In this document: positions 20,402 through 47,678 of the stretch, one piece after another
How the letters are laid out: each line of letters opens with the position of its first letter
Numbering within the stretch: the first letter of the stretch is position 1
Made by a program: the position numbers and the translations under genes
The notes under the pieces: generated by a model
The model's database searches: none
What the model was told of the DNA's origin: nothing
Seen by the model: the letters and a program-made list of their open reading frames with translations, nothing else
Assembly: GCA_031377245.1 (NCBI GenBank)
Contig: JANMEU010000004.1
Location: 60,359-124,358, forward strand
DNA: 64,000 nt
From: Bacteroidota bacterium
GTDB taxonomy: Bacteria; Bacteroidota; Bacteroidia; Chitinophagales; Chitinophagaceae
Direction of reading: 5' to 3'

Positions 20402-22207
20402 TTATTTTCTTCTTGCTACTACCAGTGTATTCTTAAACCTTTTTTTCTTACCGTCTAAATTAAATACCTCAGTATAAATTATATAAATACCGGTAGCTAT
20501 TTGTTGATTTCTTTCACCCAACCCATCCCATCTAAAGTTACCTCTTGTACCACACAACGCATTCCGTTGTAGGTTACGCACCACTCTACCAGCGGCATCA
20601 AAAATAGTAATATTGGCTACATAGCCAGGTTGCGGAAAACTATAATTTACTGTAGCAAAATCATCCATACCATCGTTATCTGGACTAACAATTTCTGGTG
20701 TTGTTGTTATTTCGCCTTGTAGTTGATCGTTAATTCTGTATTGACTATTCTTATATGTTGGTGTGCCATAACCTACGCTAGTGGCGGCACTATGCCAGTT
20801 TTCTTGGCTTTGCGTTGGTGCATTGTAATCTATTCGTTCTAATGCCACTCCCTCTCTATTCGTTATTAAACTAAAATGCCATTTTTCATCGTATTTTAAC
20901 TCATCCACAACATCGCCTTGTGCATTTAAAATGAGTACACTGCTTTTATCATCATTAAAAGAAGGTATAGTAGGTACAATTATAAAAGCATTTAAATTTT
21001 GTACAATGTAGTTTGCTTTTACTAAAGATGAGTCCTCGGTAATAACCACAAAACTTTGTGGAGCTAAAAAGTAACTATTGGTTGTTAATGTTTTTATGCT
21101 ACTAACTTGTCCTGCGGTATTTCTATTCGCAATTTTTACATTTTTTAAATCAATAGTAAAATTGGTATTATTATAAAGCTCCACATAATCGGTGCTTGTT
21201 GGCGTTGGGTTAAATAAAATTTCATTTAGTACAATATCTTTTTGTTGCAGTACAAAATAAGTGAATGAACTAGTTGCATTACTAATTGCATTGGCAGATA
21301 AATCTCTTACCCCATTTACGCTTAATTGCAAATTAGTACGTAGCGGAAAACTGTTTGCAAATGTTAAGTGTACTAACTCTAAATTAGTAGCATCTCTTAT
21401 TACCGTTAGGGGAGAGCCTACACTATTATTTACAACATAGTTTGCTGCCGTTTGGCTAGTAGTTAAATCAACAGCCTCGTTAAACAATACATCTAACGTA
21501 GTAGAGGTTAGTGCTGTTGCACTTATAAGAGCTGGAGCAGTTACATCTGGCACAAAAACTTGTACAATAATATCATCAAAATAATGTCGTTGAAAAAAAC
21601 TTGCTGTGCTTTGCTTTATTAAAATGCCAAAAAAAGCTGATGTGGTATACGTAACATCTGTAATTACCCCTTCGGTAAAATAACTATTACCAGTGCCGGT
21701 TAAATCTCTGCTCAGCGTCCATTGGTTAGCGGCATTCCGTACCACTTTTATCTTCATTACATTATTACTTGTATTTAAAACTCCATCAACTCCGTCAATA
21801 ATTTTTGTAACTACTGCTCCATCTTTTCTATATAAAGCAATTTCATCGGCGGTGTTACCAATACGTACAAAATAACCATTTGTTGCTGTAGCTGTTAAAT
21901 CGCTGGCACTTGCAGTTAAAAAAACATCCGTATAATTTGCACTTGATGGGTTAAAGGTTATTTGGTGATAAAACTCCCATTGGGCAGTTGTTGCCAATGT
22001 ACTTGCTGTACTTAAATAATACGTACTATTTATAACTGTATTATTACTTTGTAATTGAAAAACTGGATTAACTGTAAAATCGGCTAAGCCTCCCACCCAA
22101 GCAGGGTTTGTTGTAATATCGCCATCGGTAAAGCTTTCGGTAAACTGGGCTTTCGTAAATAAGTTAGCAAAGCAAATGATGTATATAAGAAGTATCCCTT
22201 TTTTCAT
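20402..22207 (-). CDS. Lamin-tail-domain protein with Ig-like domain and T9SS type-B (gliding motility-associated) C-terminal domain
   Basis: Signal peptide; IVLNEILFNP...DYVELYN (LTD); SPDNDG.DD...IFDAAG.VVR...WDG...TGIYI C-terminus. Confidence 0.8.
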   Translation of the reverse strand: MKKGILLIYIICFANLFTKAQFTESFTDGDITTNPAWVGGLADFTVNPVFQLQSNNTVINSTYYLSTASTLATTAQWEFYHQITFNPSSANYTDVFLTASASDLTATATNGYFVRIGNTADEIALYRKDGAVVTKIIDGVDGVLNTSNNVMKIKVVRNAANQWTLSRDLTGTGNSYFTEGVITDVTYTTSAFFGILIKQSTASFFQRHYFDDIIVQVFVPDVTAPALISATALTSTTLDVLFNEAVDLTTSQTAANYVVNNSVGSPLTVIRDATNLELVHLTFANSFPLRTNLQLSVNGVRDLSANAISNATSSFTYFVLQQKDIVLNEILFNPTPTSTDYVELYNNTNFTIDLKNVKIANRNTAGQVSSIKTLTTNSYFLAPQSFVVITEDSSLVKANYIVQNLNAFIIVPTIPSFNDDKSSVLILNAQGDVVDELKYDEKWHFSLITNREGVALERIDYNAPTQSQENWHSAATSVGYGTPTYKNSQYRINDQLQGEITTTPEIVSPDNDGMDDFATVNYSFPQPGYVANITIFDAAGRVVRNLQRNALCGTRGNFRWDGLGERNQQIATGIYIIYTEVFNLDGKKKRFKNTLVVARRK

Positions 22208-36090: not shown

Positions 36091-37662
36091 ATGAAAAAAA
36101 GTATTTATTATTTATTTGCAACACTATTAATGTGTTATTCACAAAACGGTTTAGCCCAAAACAAATTAGATATTGAAAACGTACGGTCTGTATATGCTAG
36201 AAGTAGTGGACAAATAATGGATGGGGAAGAACTCAAAGGATATTTTGTTTTTTACGAATCGGATAAGATTGATAAAAAAACATATGAATACACTGTTCAG
36301 ATTATGGATAATAATCTTAACAAGATAAAAGATATAAAATTTGAAGCAGATAAAAATATAGAAATACTAGAAAGTAGTTATAATGGAAATACTATTATGT
36401 TTTTATTTTATAATGACAAAACAAGAACCTTAGAATTTAGAAGCTATGGTTTTGATGGAAAACAAAAAACTAGTTATGAAAAAGAGTTAGGGAAGAGAAG
36501 TGATGCATTGTTAAAGGCTATTTATGGAAGTAATAGTGAAGATGCACAAAATGAAAACTTATTTAGTGTAAATAATGTTGGTTATGTATCTGTATTTCCA
36601 ATTAGAGAAAAAAAGTATTATAGTTATGAAGTTAATTTTTTCTTTACAGATAGAAAAAAACAGTGGGCATATGAAGCTGTTGAAGAACAAGAAGAGAAAT
36701 GGGCTAATGCTCAATATTTAGGCGCAACTGATTCTTTGCTAATTTTTGAGATTGTAAAACTTAAGCGTTTAAATTTATCAAATCCTCATTCGTGGATAGT
36801 AGGTATAAATATTTTTAGTGGTAAAAAAGTTTTTGAATTTTCTACAGAAGCGACAGATTATAAGTTTTTTCCAATGAATATTTCAAAAGTAAATGGAAGT
36901 TCGAATTTTTTATTGCTAGGTACTTATTATGAACCTGATGGAAGAATTATGAAAGATGCTAGCCTTGGCCTTGCTGCTTGGACATTTAATACACAAGGTA
37001 AAATTGTTAGTAAAAAATACAATTCGTGGAGTAGTGATATTGGTAAATATTTAGATGTTAGCAAAAGCGGAAAAGTTAGTGATGTAGGTTATATATATTT
37101 TCATAAAATTTTACAACTTCAAAATGGCAAATTTTTTGCAGTTGGTGAAGGATATAAAAAAGTTGCTGATGGTGCAGGCATTGCCATGCAAATTTTAGCC
37201 GGCGCAACAAGAGGGCGATCAAATGCAAGTACAGTAAAAGCTAAAATTACTGACTTAATAACTTTTGAATTTGATGAAAATTTTGTTATAAAAAATGCAA
37301 CTGTTTATGATAAAAATAGCAACAGTGTTAGTATGCCTGGGGGTTCGGAGTTTTTGACCCCACATACCATGGCTTTATTAGTTAAAGCTTTTGGAGGTTT
37401 TGATTATGATTTCACCCAAACCGATAAAGCACATACCCGTTTTTCAATAGGATATAGCGATTATGTAAAAGACAAAGAATACAAAGGCCGTACTTTTAAT
37501 GCAATAAGCTATGCAGATGGAAAAACAACTGTTGATAAAATTGAATTAAGTTCCAAGGCAAAATGGACTAGAGTATTTCCTGCAAAACCCGGTTCAATAA
37601 TGATATCGGAATATTTTAAAAAAGATAAAAAGCTTGAATTAAGATTAGAAAAAATAAATTAA
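36091..37662 (+). CDS. DUF6770-like secreted beta-rich protein
   Basis: Signal peptide; GYFVFYESDK.DKK..EY...IMDNNLN N-terminus; 25 nt downstream of the M48 gene. Confidence 0.65.
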   Translation: MKKSIYYLFATLLMCYSQNGLAQNKLDIENVRSVYARSSGQIMDGEELKGYFVFYESDKIDKKTYEYTVQIMDNNLNKIKDIKFEADKNIEILESSYNGNTIMFLFYNDKTRTLEFRSYGFDGKQKTSYEKELGKRSDALLKAIYGSNSEDAQNENLFSVNNVGYVSVFPIREKKYYSYEVNFFFTDRKKQWAYEAVEEQEEKWANAQYLGATDSLLIFEIVKLKRLNLSNPHSWIVGINIFSGKKVFEFSTEATDYKFFPMNISKVNGSSNFLLLGTYYEPDGRIMKDASLGLAAWTFNTQGKIVSKKYNSWSSDIGKYLDVSKSGKVSDVGYIYFHKILQLQNGKFFAVGEGYKKVADGAGIAMQILAGATRGRSNASTVKAKITDLITFEFDENFVIKNATVYDKNSNSVSMPGGSEFLTPHTMALLVKAFGGFDYDFTQTDKAHTRFSIGYSDYVKDKEYKGRTFNAISYADGKTTVDKIELSSKAKWTRVFPAKPGSIMISEYFKKDKKLELRLEKIN

Positions 37663-42697: not shown

Positions 42698-43171
42698 TTA
42701 TATGCCTCTAGCTACTTGTACATTTCTATTAAACCCTTCCTCTAACGAAATAAACGTTTCGGTACGTTCAATCCCTTTAATTTTTTGTAACTCATCATGT
42801 AATACAAAACGTAGTTGATTAATATCTTTACAAACAATTTCTATAAACATACTATAGTTGCCTGTTATATAATTTAACCGAATTATTTCGGGTATTTTCA
42901 TAAGGTCTTTTGCTACACTATCGTACAAATCGCTTTTTTCTAAATAAATGCCTACAAAGGCGGTAATATCGTAGCCTAATTGTTTAACATCCACATTAAG
43001 TTTTGTACCTTTAACAATACCAAATTCTTGTAATTTTTTTATACGTACATGAATGGTACCGCCGCTTACAAATAGTTTTTTTCCTAAATCGGCATAACTA
43101 ACTTCGGCTGTTTCCATCATTTCATGAATAATCTGAAGATCGAGTTTGTCAAGATTTAATTTTGCTGCCAT
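42698..43171 (-). CDS. asnC: Lrp/AsnC family regulator (AsnC-like)
   Basis: LD.LD..I......SYADLGKKL.VS.GT.HVR.KKL HTH; ITGNYSMF and I.GI.RTET.ISL. Confidence 0.88.
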   Translation of the reverse strand: MAAKLNLDKLDLQIIHEMMETAEVSYADLGKKLFVSGGTIHVRIKKLQEFGIVKGTKLNVDVKQLGYDITAFVGIYLEKSDLYDSVAKDLMKIPEIIRLNYITGNYSMFIEIVCKDINQLRFVLHDELQKIKGIERTETFISLEEGFNRNVQVARGI

Positions 43172-43279
43172 AACTATATTTCAATTTAGTAATTATCAAA
43201 TAATAATTGCAAATATTTAAATAATTTCTATATTTTCCAAATTTATTATAAAAAATATTTAACGTATTGCTATTTTCTA

Positions 43280-43287
43280 TAGATTTG
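43280..43287 (+). promoter_or_regulatory. -7 element TAGATTTG driving the tRNA-like RNA
   Basis: Consensus TAnnTTTG, 21 nt upstream of the predicted mature 5' end at 43309. Confidence 0.7.
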
Positions 43288-43308
43288 CATTATAATAGTT
43301 CTTAACAA

Positions 43309-43482
43309 TGTGGGGTGATGAAATTTTTGGCAGACATACCCTCTTGTCTCGAGGGTGGGGATAACAGGACAAACGAAACATAGAGCCGTTATTGTAGCAA
43401 TACAGTATCGACCGGGGTCGACCACCGAACTTTGTGTTTTAGCTAACTGCCTCGTGGAGGTTCGATCCCTCCCCCTACAGCA
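43309..43482 (+). ncRNA. tRNA-like RNA (GUC/Asp anticodon) with a 100-nt structured insertion in the variable arm
   Basis: Acceptor TGTGGGG/CCCTACA + G73; D-stem ATG/CAT with GG in the loop; anticodon stem CCCTC/GAGGG with loop TTGTCTC; T-arm GGAGG-TTCGATC-CCTCC; insert 43356-43455. Confidence 0.85.
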
Positions 43483-43492
43483 TTTTATTTTG

Positions 43493-43525
43493 GCCTTTCG
43501 ATAGAGTTATCGAAAGGCTTTTTTG
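43493..43525 (+). terminator. Intrinsic terminator of the tRNA-like RNA
   Basis: GCCTTTCGATA-GAGT-TATCGAAAGGC followed by TTTTTT. Confidence 0.9.
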
Positions 43526-43555: not shown

Positions 43556-44263
43556 ATGGCACAAAAAAAATTACAGCGCTTTGCCGATATTAAAACATTT
43601 AAAAACGTTTTAGAATACCCTGAAAATATGCAGGGTAAATGGAGCAGTTTTTTTGAAAACGAAAACCCAATTGTATTGGAGTTAGCTTGTGGCCGTGGAG
43701 AATATACGGTGGGTTTGTCTACCCTTTATCCAAACAAAAATATAATTGGGGTTGATGTTAAAGGCAACAGAATGTACATTGGTGCAAAAAAATGCTTAGA
43801 AAATAAGTTAAGCAATGCTGCATTTTTACGTACACAAATTGAACTTATTGCTAACTATTTTGCAGCTGGCGAGGTAGACGAAATTTGGATAACTTTCCCC
43901 GACCCTCAGCTACGAACATCTAAAGCAAAAAAGCGGTTAACGCATCCTCGATTTTTAAGGCTGTACGCTCAACTATTAAAACAAGGGGGTTGTGTTCATT
44001 TAAAAACAGATTCGCCTAAATTATTTTTGTTTACAAAAAGAGTAATTGAACTTTTTGACCTTTTTGTTGTTGAACAGAACGATAGTATATATGCAAATAA
44101 AGAAGTTAACCCAGCATTAACCATTAAAACCCACTACGAAAGTTTAGATATTGCACAAAGTAAAAGAATACATTATCTTCAATTTAAACTTACAACTCCC
44201 CTTACAAACTTAAACGATAACCAACTGCAAGAAATTTTAAAGGATGAAGAAAAAGCTGATTGA
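43556..44263 (+). CDS. trmB: tRNA (guanine-N7)-methyltransferase (ORF track extends the start to 43523)
   Basis: LELACGRGEY, GVDVKG.R, WITFPDP..R..KAKKRLT and LKTD motifs; -7 element TACCTTTG at 43541-48 favours ATG 43556. Confidence 0.95.
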   Translation: MAQKKLQRFADIKTFKNVLEYPENMQGKWSSFFENENPIVLELACGRGEYTVGLSTLYPNKNIIGVDVKGNRMYIGAKKCLENKLSNAAFLRTQIELIANYFAAGEVDEIWITFPDPQLRTSKAKKRLTHPRFLRLYAQLLKQGGCVHLKTDSPKLFLFTKRVIELFDLFVVEQNDSIYANKEVNPALTIKTHYESLDIAQSKRIHYLQFKLTTPLTNLNDNQLQEILKDEEKAD

Positions 44264-46301: not shown

Positions 46302-47678
46302 TTATTGCACTATCAGCTTGGTTGTTTGTTTATTTCCTTTTTTATTAAACACAACTAGTAAATACATCCCTTTAGCTTGGGTACTTAAATTTATTGGAAA
46401 ATTTCCTTTTGTGTTAACTATACTTTTTTGAATAGTATTACCATTTGTATTTACAACCTCATATCTATCTGCATCAAAGCCACTAGGCACCATAATATTA
46501 AATAGACCAACTGAAGGATTTGGTGTTGCAGAAATTGCTTTTAATTTATTTTCTTGTATAGATTCATTTTGGATTTTAGATAAAGTAGAATTCGTTGATG
46601 CAAAATTGCCAGATGTAATTAAATTAACAGTATAATCTTCTGTTTCGCCTAAGTAGCCCGTAAGGCAAGGGTTGGTTATAGTACCAGAGTTTTTAATCAT
46701 AAATACCCTCATTCTTGTAGTACCAACAGTGGCAGTTGCAGGAATATTTATAGTAAAGTTTTTAATAGTAGTGCCAGAAATACTAGCTGCCCCATTACTT
46801 AAAATTAAACGTTCACCTGCATCGCTAAAGCTTCCATTTCTATTAAAATCTATCCAAACCATAAATCTACTATTACTTGAGTTGCCCGAAAATCCTGTAC
46901 GTATTTGTCCAGCATTATTGTTAGAGCCAATTACTAAATCTGTGCTTAATGGAATAGTTGCATAGCCACCTGGCTCTGCAACAGAGGTTCGGTTAATAGT
47001 ACCTAATTTAAAATAGTTAATCCAAAGTGATGAATTACTACCATTTGATATACAATAAGCAGGTTGAGTTACAAATTGACTTGTAATATAATCACTATTA
47101 AAGGCAGAACAAACTCTTCTTACTCTCCATTCATAGGCTGTATTAGCTGCCAAGCCTGTTAAATTAAAAAATGTTGCTGTAGGATTATTATAAATATTGG
47201 TTAACTGTATCCAAGCATTGGTAGTATTGGCTAAGCGGTAAGATACAGAAAACCCTGTGTTTGCATTATTAACAGTACTAGCTTGTTGCCAATTTAATAC
47301 AGCACTTACAGAAGTAATATTTGTAGTTGATAAATTAAATGGCTGTAAACATGGAGTGCTAAAAAAAGCAGTAGTATACACACTTGTTCCGTTTATACAA
47401 TTAGCTTTTACTCTCCATTGAAAGTTACCGCCTTGCATTAAGCCAGTTATGGTATAAGGGATTGATGTTACTGCAATTTCGCCAAAACTCCAGTCGCCAC
47501 CGGCCCAATCAATTTCAAAAACATAATCGGTTGCACCTAAAACCGGATCCCAAATAAAAGTAGCTACATTATTACTATAACTGCTTTGTAAATTAGTAGG
47601 AGCATCGCATTGTGCTGTACTATTATTAGCTAAAAGCAGTATTGAAGCAAATAATAGAAGGGTAAATTTTTTTTTCAT
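46302..47678 (-). CDS. T9SS type-A cargo with two FN3 domains and a GEVED domain
   Basis: Signal peptide; two C..P.NL...W...Y.WRV FN3 units; VWIDFNRNGSFSD.GE...TRMRV...GETEDYTV; PNPS.G...GMY CTD. Confidence 0.88.
   Translation of the reverse strand: MKKKFTLLLFASILLLANNSTAQCDAPTNLQSSYSNNVATFIWDPVLGATDYVFEIDWAGGDWSFGEIAVTSIPYTITGLMQGGNFQWRVKANCINGTSVYTTAFFSTPCLQPFNLSTTNITSVSAVLNWQQASTVNNANTGFSVSYRLANTTNAWIQLTNIYNNPTATFFNLTGLAANTAYEWRVRRVCSAFNSDYITSQFVTQPAYCISNGSNSSLWINYFKLGTINRTSVAEPGGYATIPLSTDLVIGSNNNAGQIRTGFSGNSSNSRFMVWIDFNRNGSFSDAGERLILSNGAASISGTTIKNFTINIPATATVGTTRMRVFMIKNSGTITNPCLTGYLGETEDYTVNLITSGNFASTNSTLSKIQNESIQENKLKAISATPNPSVGLFNIMVPSGFDADRYEVVNTNGNTIQKSIVNTKGNFPINLSTQAKGMYLLVVFNKKGNKQTTKLIVQ

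Follow-up and report, generated by a model that had tools for sequence, protein, structure and literature searches.

A family of tRNA-like RNAs with an expanded variable arm, encoded opposite an AsnC-type regulator in Bacteroidota, and its possible part in asparagine metabolism

Non-decoding RNAs that derive from tRNA and have a cellular job of their own are, to our knowledge, rare, with transfer-messenger RNA (tmRNA) and the Y-RNA-like RNAs as the main examples. The former is processed by tRNA enzymes; in YrlA, a bacterial Y-RNA-like RNA, the tRNA-like module is internal, the termini form a helix that binds Ro/Rsr, and the genes lie near rsr. In E. coli K-12, asnC and the asparagine synthetase gene asnA are divergent, with a 151-nt gap between them. 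Among ordinary tRNAs, tRNA-Asn is a cofactor for the conversion of aspartate (Asp) to asparagine (Asn), and some bacteria that possess AsnRS synthesise Asn in this way (PMC1635274, PMC2811023, PMC4206432). Here we describe a tRNA-like RNA encoded in a 64,000-nt stretch of Bacteroidota contig JANMEU010000004.1 ("the window", to which all coordinates refer unless a locus is named). Its gene, on the + strand, lies in a 384-nt gap between a minus-strand AsnC/Lrp-family gene (42698-43171) and plus-strand trmB (43556-44263), and stands out as an island of 47% GC against a background of ~30%. An earlier note on this DNA, made from the sequence alone, had proposed a tRNA-like, non-decoding RNA with aspartate identity elements and a link to AsnC, all of which has stood; its inclusion of trmB, two of its helices in the inserted domain and its suggestion of an excised insert have not, and it overlooked the invariant U1:A72 pair (a determinant for bacterial GatCAB), the probable origin of the frame in a class-II, tRNA-Leu-like molecule, and the breadth of the family.

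Full-length homologues of the RNA were found at 14 trmB-seeded loci drawn from 80 Chitinophagaceae genomes, with 3 more cut by contig ends; the first ~33 nt of the RNA are near-invariant at these loci, although the TrmB proteins are only 58-83% identical. A degenerate 21-nt pattern taken from the most conserved stretch and used for a DNA-level search matched 2 IMG/VR loci and at least 120 metagenome loci, and the family counts that follow are among the matches listed and are lower bounds. With copies delimited by acceptor pairing, the family comprises at least 122 unique full-length members of 108-201 nt. Judged by neighbouring proteins, the hosts include Chitinophagia (Ferruginibacter, Niastella, Flavihumibacter, Lacibacter) and Cytophagia (Ohtaekwangia, Chryseosolibacter, Siphonobacter, Algoriphagus, Cecembia, Belliella), and a marine lineage from Tara Oceans also carries the RNA. 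Many of the carriers are soil or freshwater Bacteroidota. That a conserved and abundant family of tRNA-like non-coding RNAs exists here is virtually certain. It must be larger than sampled, because the member at locus L212, recovered protein-first through its AsnC orthologue (nhmmer E = 1.4e-23), is one that the DNA pattern would miss. At L212:3501-7492 the AsnC orthologue beside the RNA is followed by same-strand trmD, a NUDIX gene, rplS and an EF-Tu gene, placing the RNA/AsnC pair of that lineage in a translation-related neighbourhood. The pattern gave a single false-positive match, L103:1590-4029, on a high-GC contig with a class A RNase P RNA, a c-di-AMP riboswitch and a tRNA-Leu(GAG); this tRNA served as positive control for the Rfam and ARAGORN scans described below.

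The single-sequence fold of the element is unremarkable (z = -1.1), and structural support therefore rests on the comparison of homologues. For this, 53 diverse members were aligned, the hypervariable middle of the insert was removed, and the proposed structure was scored pair by pair. Standard pairs fill 98.5% of cells, versus 50-59% when the partners are slid along the alignment, and 10 pairs show double changes versus 2-3 with partners slid; the observed values were matched by 0 of 500 shuffles on four of five measures and by 1 of 500 on the fifth. The cloverleaf is thus real, far beyond chance. In the 7-bp acceptor stem, pairs 4-7 show compensatory change while pairs 1-3 are invariant (UGU/ACA), and neither U1:A72, G2:C71, U3:A70 nor the discriminator G73 ever varies across the family; the commonest stems among the 122 members are UGUGGGG/CCCUACA (77), UGUAGGG/CCCUACA (11), UGUGGAG/CUCUACA (11) and UGUAGGA/UCCUACA (9). 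Pair 10:25 of the D-stem (alignment columns 10:37) is A:U in 36 members, U:A in 13 and G:C in 3, the anticodon-like stem also covaries, and the T-stem is 100% paired, with pair 50:64 (alignment columns 90:104) being G:C in 24, G:U in 21 and A:U in 8. The helix GGGG/CCUC that closes the insert has compensatory changes at its two inner pairs. The earlier note's 7-bp acceptor, 3-bp D-stem, anticodon stem, T-arm and closing helix are all upheld by this covariation, its loop UUGUCUC and T-loop UUCGAUC are present as described, and the homologues that it named as a check on the structure have been found in quantity. A tmRNA-like topology, with a GGCAG/CUGCC helix in place of the anticodon arm, was considered and rejected, as it is the insert-closing helix and the anticodon-like stem that covary instead.

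The inserted domain, which the earlier note had taken as 100 nt at 43356-43455, is 97 nt long in the window and 35-125 nt across the family, and fills the loop position of a class-II (tRNA-Leu-like) variable arm. Its base is conserved: the 4-bp helix P1, a bulge AUNA, helix P2 (CAG/CUG) and an internal loop GAUAAA / CUAA, of which the GAN/UAA arrangement beside P2 bears a tentative resemblance to the UAA/GAN internal-loop motif. Scored in the 58 long-form members, P1 is 100% paired with 2 of its 4 pairs compensatory, P2 is likewise 100% paired, and the long helix P3 is 94.8% paired with compensatory change at 7 of 11 pairs. P4 is a single hairpin in all 58, with a GCAA loop in 39, and is the GCAA-tetraloop hairpin that had been predicted. 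In P5, pair 106:118 splits evenly between A:U (29) and G:C (29), and pair 105:119 is C:G in 39, U:G in 6, U:A in 4 and unpaired in 9. Two helices of the original proposal must be given up: the pairing AGGACAAA/UUUGUGUU shows no compensatory change and is displaced by P3, and the hairpin UCGAC-CGGG-GUCGA does not covary and conflicts with both P5 and the base of P4. A pseudoknot between the CGGG loop and the downstream CCACCG was also discarded, a simple P5 hairpin with a bulged A explaining the same covariation. One metatranscriptome contig (X21, depth ~100) joins 43377 to 43431, skipping the 53 nt of P4 and P5, and the inserts of other contigs differ greatly in sequence; we take these for natural short-insert variants belonging to other species, not splicing.

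Decoding tRNAs have a near-universal U33 and a purine at position 37. In this family the loop reads NNGUCUC in 116 of 122 members, positions 32-33 being UU (80), CU (16), UC (11), CG (7) or CC (2); the remaining six comprise two CUGUCCC loops, with U33, and four without a recognisable loop. At position 33, 96 members thus have U, 13 have C and 7 have G (besides the two CUGUCCC members); at position 37, 116 have U and 2 have C. ARAGORN reported no tRNA or tmRNA in the 64-kb window and none in 44 member loci. No Rfam 15 family reached its gathering threshold in the window; relaxing the cutoff to E <= 10 on the locus, or to E <= 1 on six member loci, brought only noise and, in the latter, no RF00005 match, while the control tRNA-Leu of L103 scored 50.8 bits. 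Because position 33 varies and position 37 is U, the RNA is a non-decoder; it is tRNA-derived but non-decoding, as the earlier note had read it, and ARAGORN and the Rfam tRNA model, among the scans which that note recommended, miss every member tried.

The positions that do not vary match determinants published for AspRS. In the account of Giegé and Eriani (PMC9976931), five aspartate determinants are strong (G73, G34, U35, C36 and C38) and G2-C71 is minor. All 122 members have G73, all 53 aligned members have G34, U35, C36 and C38, and G2:C71 is invariant as well, so that the aspartate identity elements seen earlier in one sequence prove to be exactly the fixed positions of the family. The 1:72 pair is U:A instead of G:C, in 53/53 aligned and all 122 unique members. 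For amidation by bacterial GatCAB, U1-A72 is a promoting pair and G1-C72 a blocking one; in tRNA-Asp a supernumerary nucleotide in the D-loop is a further antideterminant (PMC1635274, PMC2811023).

The RNA is made in large amounts. Its sequence is present in 14 freshwater, lake and estuary metatranscriptomes and in 5 further runs of unstated library type. Contig word depth within ~43310-43482 is about 4,000 (X21), 5,600 (X22) and 12,000 (X25), compared with 0-2 over asnC and 0 over trmB, and the RNA ranks with the most abundant host transcripts in metatranscriptomes from lakes and rivers. Depth over the leader (43289-43309) is 0-1.2, against hundreds to thousands from 43310 on, and on the 3' side it falls from ~2,400 to 0 past 43484, the terminator being absent from the RNA; both ends must therefore be trimmed at tRNA-like boundaries, presumably by RNase P and the tRNA 3'-processing enzymes. 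An independent transcript with its own promoter and a strong terminator had been predicted, and both the depth profile, confined to the ends of the RNA, and the TAGATTTG box and intrinsic terminator of the window agree with this. Across the family a TAnnTTTG -7 box ends 20-35 nt 5' of the mature end in 68 of 115 members, and terminator-like hairpins follow most members. An AGTTCTT box (window 43297-43308) recurs in the 5' leaders of many Chitinophagaceae members, just 5' of A(-4), A(-2) and Y(-1). C74 is invariant and a full CCA is encoded in only 7 of 115 members. The proposal of a tRNA with an excised insert fails, as RNA-seq contigs run through the insert at high depth.

The neighbouring regulator is the most constant partner of the RNA. 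When synteny was counted in loci found through the RNA pattern alone, the nearest upstream open reading frame (ORF) was a homologue of the window regulator in 73 of 81 loci, always divergent, at a median gap of 150 nt and with 47-100% identity, which bears out the proposed link to AsnC. By the same count trmB lies downstream in only 14 of 83 pattern-seeded loci and is no conserved neighbour, leaving the idea that TrmB acts on G46 of this RNA without basis. No Asp/Asn gene, aminoacylation gene or other general partner was found among 396 neighbouring ORFs, and no defence genes were linked to the RNA in that survey. The regulator is 40% identical to E. coli AsnC, gap-free over 146 residues, and its best match in PDB is E. 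coli AsnC (2cg4, E = 1.7e-31; E. coli Lrp, 2gqq, gives E = 5.8e-11). Against the NCBIfam AsnC equivalog it scores 156 bits, below the cutoff of 227, and against those for Lrp, LysM, LrpA and ChrS 50-63 bits (Lrp 54). RNA-linked regulators are labelled 'regulator for asnA, asnC and gidA' at JGI, and a Saprospiraceae representative bridges the groups, with 62% identity to an RNA-linked regulator and 52% to AsnC of E. coli. Judged by these comparisons, the regulator is a specific orthologue of AsnC, and the RNA gene lies beside it where asnA lies in E. coli.

The shared intergenic region offers a putative site of action. The most recurrent 8-mer between regulator and RNA is the palindrome AAATATTT, found in 71 of 117 unique regions; the 7-mer AATATTT occurs in 75 of the 117 versus 26 in shuffles, and the two copies of AAATATTT in the window are 42 nt apart. 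We regard this palindrome as a candidate AsnC operator, to which the regulator would bind. A search for asnA beside the AsnC orthologues of other Bacteroidota found none in Saprospiraceae and one sparsely sampled lineage, and a recognisable RNA only at L212. In these two groups, gene-free regions of 270-580 nt lie upstream of AsnC orthologues (L204:3420-4001, L206:3730-4001, L210:2719-3038 and L211:3127-3501); they contain hairpins and terminator-like elements, with no recognisable family member and no asnA, and might hold a diverged or a different RNA.

Several members depart from the standard form or setting. Members at L081:2444-2591 (-) and L082:45-202 (-), and also at L088 and L092, are on IMG/VR viral contigs and similar metagenome contigs; there the RNA lies among small same-strand ORFs with PHROG matches (metallo-phosphoesterase and phage families of unknown function) and without an AsnC neighbour, and some phages thus appear to carry family members. 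Phage or plasmid origin of the RNA had been considered: blastn against phage and plasmid collections gave no match, yet members do occur on the two IMG/VR contigs, L081 being phage-like. Tandem arrays with units of 230-350 nt are seen at L036:2310-2940, L011:586-997 and L021:600-761. From the second copy on, the acceptor strand UGUGGGG is missing together with most of the D-arm, and the copies begin at ...GCAGCGACCC; in some copies the T-arm has been rebuilt or destroyed with the insert identical to that of copy 1, and at L036 a conserved hairpin (GCCCCGGCAGCGGTTGCAAACCCTGCCGGCGGC) precedes each copy. The truncated copies could be decaying duplicates, or a distinct form of the RNA without the tRNA frame. 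An integration site was rejected as their cause, the units being only ~230-350 nt long and carrying no cargo. In the second tandem copy at L117 (minus strand, 163 nt) a longer hairpin with a UUCG-type loop and no GUCUC replaces the anticodon-like arm, and in the 146-nt member L135 the loop is CGAUCCC, so the aspartate-like loop is not kept in every copy. An extra small hairpin in the D-loop (e.g. GGCGUAAGCC or UGCGAAAGCA) replaces the U-run in L100, L106, L128, L138, L144, L163, L198 and others, making the D-loop a second site of expansion.

The features of the locus are collected in Table 1. Elsewhere in the window, a 523-amino acid protein (36091-37662) matches DUF6770 from end to end (681 bits) and is unrelated to the RNA, and several surface proteins with type IX secretion system tails (20402-22207, 46302-47678) are ordinary Bacteroidota content.

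Table 1. Features of the tRNA-like RNA gene and its surroundings (window coordinates)
Feature	Position	Strand	Evidence or remark
AsnC-orthologue regulator gene, 157 amino acids	42698..43171	-	Pfam AsnC_trans_reg and HTH_AsnC-type; divergent from RNA gene
Two copies of palindrome AAATATTT (43211-43218, 43253-43260), candidate AsnC operator	43211..43260		Shared 137-nt intergenic region
Sigma-70-like TTGCTA-18-TATAAT, overlapping the TAGATTTG box	43267-43296	+	Sigma-70 scan
Bacteroidota-type -7 promoter box TAGATTTG	43280..43287	+	TAnnTTTG family pattern
5' leader, removed from mature RNA; family consensus A-4, A-2, Y-1	43288..43308	+	RNA-seq depth, leader conservation
Mature tRNA-like RNA, 172 nt, U1 to discriminator G73	43309..43480	+	Family nhmmer E = 2.6e-56 over exactly 43309-43480; RNA-seq; covariation
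Acceptor stem 5' strand UGUGGGG, pairs with 43473-43479 (CCCUACA)	43309..43315	+	U1:A72, G2:C71, U3:A70 invariant
D-arm: 3-bp stem AUG/CAU (43318-43320 with 43335-43337), 14-nt loop with GG	43318..43337	+	Class-II tRNA-Leu-like architecture
Anticodon-like arm: stem CCCUC/GAGGG, loop UUGUCUC (43344-43350)	43339..43355	+	G34 = 43346, then U35, C36, U37; C38 = 43350
Inserted domain in variable arm, 97 nt	43357..43453	+	Conserved core GRRG-AUNACAGGAUAAA...CUAACUG-CYYC across family
Insert base, 5' side: P1 GGGG (43357-43360), bulge AUAA, P2 CAG (43365-43367), GAC of internal loop	43357..43370	+	Pairing counts
P3 long helix (43375-43385 with 43430-43440), encloses three-way junction	43375..43440	+	Covariation
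P4 variable hairpin, GCAA tetraloop (43397-43400)	43387..43410	+	Strong covariation
P5 hairpin CGGGG-UCGA-CC(A)CCG, bulged A	43413..43427	+	Covariation
Insert base, 3' side: internal-loop UAA (43444-43446), P2 CUG (43447-43449), P1 CCUC (43450-43453)	43444..43453	+	Pairing counts
T-arm GGAGG-UUCGAUC-CCUCC	43456..43472	+	100% paired
Invariant C74, variable bases after; CCA not encoded	43481..43481	+	C in 115/115 members
Intrinsic terminator: 12-bp stem, 4-nt loop, U-tract; trimmed from mature RNA	43492..43525	+	Terminator scan (43492-43519)

The gene content of the host groups is of interest in this connection. Alperstein et al., 2014 (PMC4206432, Table S1) scored gene presence across 547 genera, and the entries of that table give Chitinophaga as asnA 0, asnB 3, gatCAB 1, asnS 1, glnS 1 and Niastella as asnA 0, asnB 1, gatCAB 1, asnS 1, glnS 1. 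Seven genera of Cytophagia are entered there with gatCAB, while Flavobacterium, Cellulophaga, Bacteroides and Alistipes, like most of the Flavobacteriia and Bacteroidia entries consulted, are without it. On these entries GatCAB has no obligatory translational role in Chitinophaga and Niastella. The RNA is found in the gatCAB-bearing classes, gatCAB being taken here from the genus table.

One possibility is that the RNA is a scaffold for the synthesis of Asn. AsnC would switch it on when Asn is scarce, as E. coli AsnC does with asnA. After addition of CCA, AspRS would aspartylate it, a step proposed because the RNA carries the full strong set of Asp determinants together with G2:C71, and the invariant U1:A72 would then allow GatCAB to convert the bound Asp to Asn by amidation. 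Access of an Asn-charged RNA with a GUC loop to EF-Tu and the ribosome would be barred by U37, by the lack of constraint at position 33 and by the bulky variable-arm domain, so that Asn could be made off the ribosome without miscoding and without a non-discriminating AspRS. Control by Asn, the addition of CCA, charging, amidation and the barring of the RNA from EF-Tu and the ribosome are each conjectural steps, and the complete AsnC-controlled, AspRS-charged, GatCAB-amidated scheme is put forward tentatively, as possible rather than probable. For the broader statement that the RNA acts through AspRS in Asn/Asp homeostasis we would put the chances at about even; for the more pointed one that it is a dedicated non-translational cofactor for amino-acid assembly, combining an ordinary discriminating AspRS, GatCAB, exclusion by the variable arm and an AsnC switch, we are doubtful.

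A number of observations weigh against the scaffold proposal. We know of no mechanism that would release free Asn from such an RNA. Neither among the neighbours surveyed nor in the window is the RNA accompanied by gat, aspS or asn genes. Cyclobacteriaceae-type members and the phage copies do not adjoin AsnC, and the AsnC orthologues of Saprospiraceae have neither a recognisable RNA nor asnA alongside. Adapters are joined to ends at G73 and at G73-C-A, and to none at CCA, though the contigs come from randomly primed libraries, which makes this weak evidence about the 3' end; the isolate transcriptome runs contain genomic DNA and are of no help on CCA. The D-loop of 11-14 nt, in some members with an extra GNRA-type hairpin, is not the compact one that GatCAB favours, and the G10 determinant is not kept, position 10 being A in 36 members, U in 13 and G in only 3. 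G1-C72, which helps to position the acceptor end in E. coli AspRS (PMC9976931), is replaced by U1:A72. The absence of the RNA from Flavobacteriia/Bacteroidia rests on no direct search, and since asnB is entered for the Chitinophagaceae in the genus table, the proposed pathway would not be their sole route to Asn.

Much of the same evidence would fit an RNA that binds AspRS, and perhaps GatCAB, without being charged, serving under AsnC control as a decoy, sponge or sensor that tunes the formation of Asp- and Asn-tRNA or signals amino-acid status. The identity elements and the AsnC link speak for this as much as for the scaffold, the very high abundance would suit a stoichiometric titrator, and the adapter junctions just described, weak as they are, point the same way. 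A pure anticodon-arm decoy, however, needs no invariant U1:A72, no C74 and no tRNA-like processing of its ends, and the sequestration of AspRS at low Asn has no obvious logic; we consider an uncharged ligand unlikely. A comparably small chance is given to a regulatory or structural RNA that keeps its tRNA shape for processing and stability only and binds a protein or another RNA through the GUCUC loop and the internal loop at the insert base, adjacency to AsnC reflecting transcriptional control and the match to the Asp set being coincidence. The most conserved feature not taken from tRNA is indeed the insert base (AUNACAGGAUAAA / CUAACUG), some paralogues lose tRNA features and retain the insert, and the phage copies do without AsnC; but such a role leaves unexplained the fixation of exactly G34, U35, C36, C38, G73, G2:C71 and U1:A72 beside variable positions 32 and 33, and the invariance of acceptor pairs 1-3 and C74.

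The large variable region raises the question of serine: SerRS might charge the RNA as a class-II tRNA-like acceptor, and the seryl-RNA would then enter a conversion pathway that is non-ribosomal or tRNA-dependent. The anticodon is not read by SerRS. G73, G2-C71, R4-Y69 and a large variable region all belong to the bacterial serine list (PMC9976931), and the RNA has each of them. The RNA has A72 and not C72, U11-A24 (in 51 of 53) and not C11-G24, and U:G, C:G or U:A at 30:40 in place of G30-C40; moreover its insert base is a bulge and an internal loop rather than a plain helix, and neither the invariant GUCUC loop nor the AsnC link would be accounted for, which makes a serine acceptor quite improbable. 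Still more so, in our estimate, is a decoy or target mimic for anticodon nucleases in phage-host conflict, whose GUC-type loop would divert toxins that cut anticodon loops of the Asp/Asn/His/Tyr type: members on phage-like contigs, a strictly conserved loop core and great abundance would suit such a part, but the chromosomal gene is stable and vertically inherited beside AsnC across two classes, no defence genes are linked to it, and the invariant acceptor end is left unexplained. That the RNA decodes after all, as a true tRNA-Asp whose variable arm is oversized or as a tRNA whose insert is excised, is largely refuted and hardly credible in spite of the complete cloverleaf, GUC anticodon and canonical T-loop: 20 of 122 members have C or G at position 33, U stands at position 37, both ARAGORN and the tRNA model of Rfam pass over the RNA yet find the control tRNA, and RNA-seq contigs span the insert at high depth, the lone skipping form being a divergent natural variant. 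For a tRNA pseudogene in decay, carrying a random insertion, only the unusual shape could be cited; that reading is refuted by the extreme conservation, the compensatory changes found in all helices, the huge expression and the conserved synteny, which leave it practically no chance.

Whatever its role, the RNA is widespread in two classes of Bacteroidota and abundant, yet has been overlooked by standard annotation. Its fixed positions fit the published recognition rules of AspRS and bacterial GatCAB, and its gene lies where asnA would be beside asnC, so that the retention of GatCAB beside AsnRS and GlnRS becomes directly testable. If the scaffold proposal is true, it would explain that retention in Chitinophagaceae and other bacteria holding both synthetases, and the gene would be the first RNA gene known to stand, within a conserved regulatory unit, in the place of a gene for an enzyme of amino-acid biosynthesis (asnA). 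Cultured species exist in the host genera (Ferruginibacter lapsinanis, and the genera Niastella, Algoriphagus, Cecembia and Siphonobacter) and the assays are established. Even without a role in Asn supply, a new RNA that is abundant and structured, has a conserved domain and comes with a regulator of its own merits study and an Rfam entry.

No prior description of the RNA was found in the literature, and no Rfam family covers it. Several known RNAs bear comparison with it. With class-II tRNA-Leu it shares the D-arm layout (UG, a 3-bp stem and a ~11-nt loop GAAUUGGYAGA), U at position 44, the GU linker and the T-arm. The D region of the L103 tRNA-Leu(GAG) is identical to that of family members at up to 16 of 20 positions, and its variable arm GGGG-CUAACU-GCCCC matches both ends of the family insert (GGGG...CUAACUGCCCC); the likeness in the 3' half is biased, because a T-arm pattern retrieved L103, while that in the D-arm is unbiased. 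Unlike tRNA-Leu, the RNA has G73 (an antideterminant for LeuRS, PMC9976931) and not A73, an acceptor that starts UGU, the NNGUCUC loop and a domain of 35-125 nt, and is missed by tRNA detectors. The simplest reading of these resemblances is that the frame descends from a class-II tRNA, probably tRNA-Leu, whose variable-arm loop expanded. U1:A72, G73, G34 and U35 are shared with the tRNA-Asn used by non-discriminating AspRS and GatCAB, which differs in being a class I tRNA with anticodon GUU that decodes on the ribosome and needs the non-discriminating enzyme, whereas the RNA has GUC, the cognate Asp anticodon, U37, and a class-II frame with a giant insert.

In its regulatory setting the closest parallel is the E. 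coli asnC-asnA pair, with its orthologous regulator (40% identity), divergent layout and spacing of ~150 nt, except that the partner here is an RNA gene and not the gene for asparagine synthetase A, and that its regulation would follow by analogy. YrlA differs from this RNA in its termini, which here form the acceptor stem, and in its gene neighbour, here AsnC, and the present RNA has no Rfam match. YrlA is likewise a non-decoding tRNA mimic with T-arm and D-arm features (PMC4201824). Like tmRNA (SsrA), the RNA is an abundant, tRNA-derived molecule that combines an acceptor/T-arm module with large structured domains, and some phages carry both; but tmRNA lacks an anticodon arm, which its extra domain replaces, and has G3:U70 alanine identity, an internal ORF and pseudoknots, whereas the RNA described here retains the full cloverleaf, has its domain in the variable arm with helices that covary, and is not called as tmRNA by ARAGORN or Rfam. 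It is a new family of tRNA-derived RNA, set apart in architecture from both tmRNA and YrlA by the combination of a full cloverleaf with a variable-arm domain.

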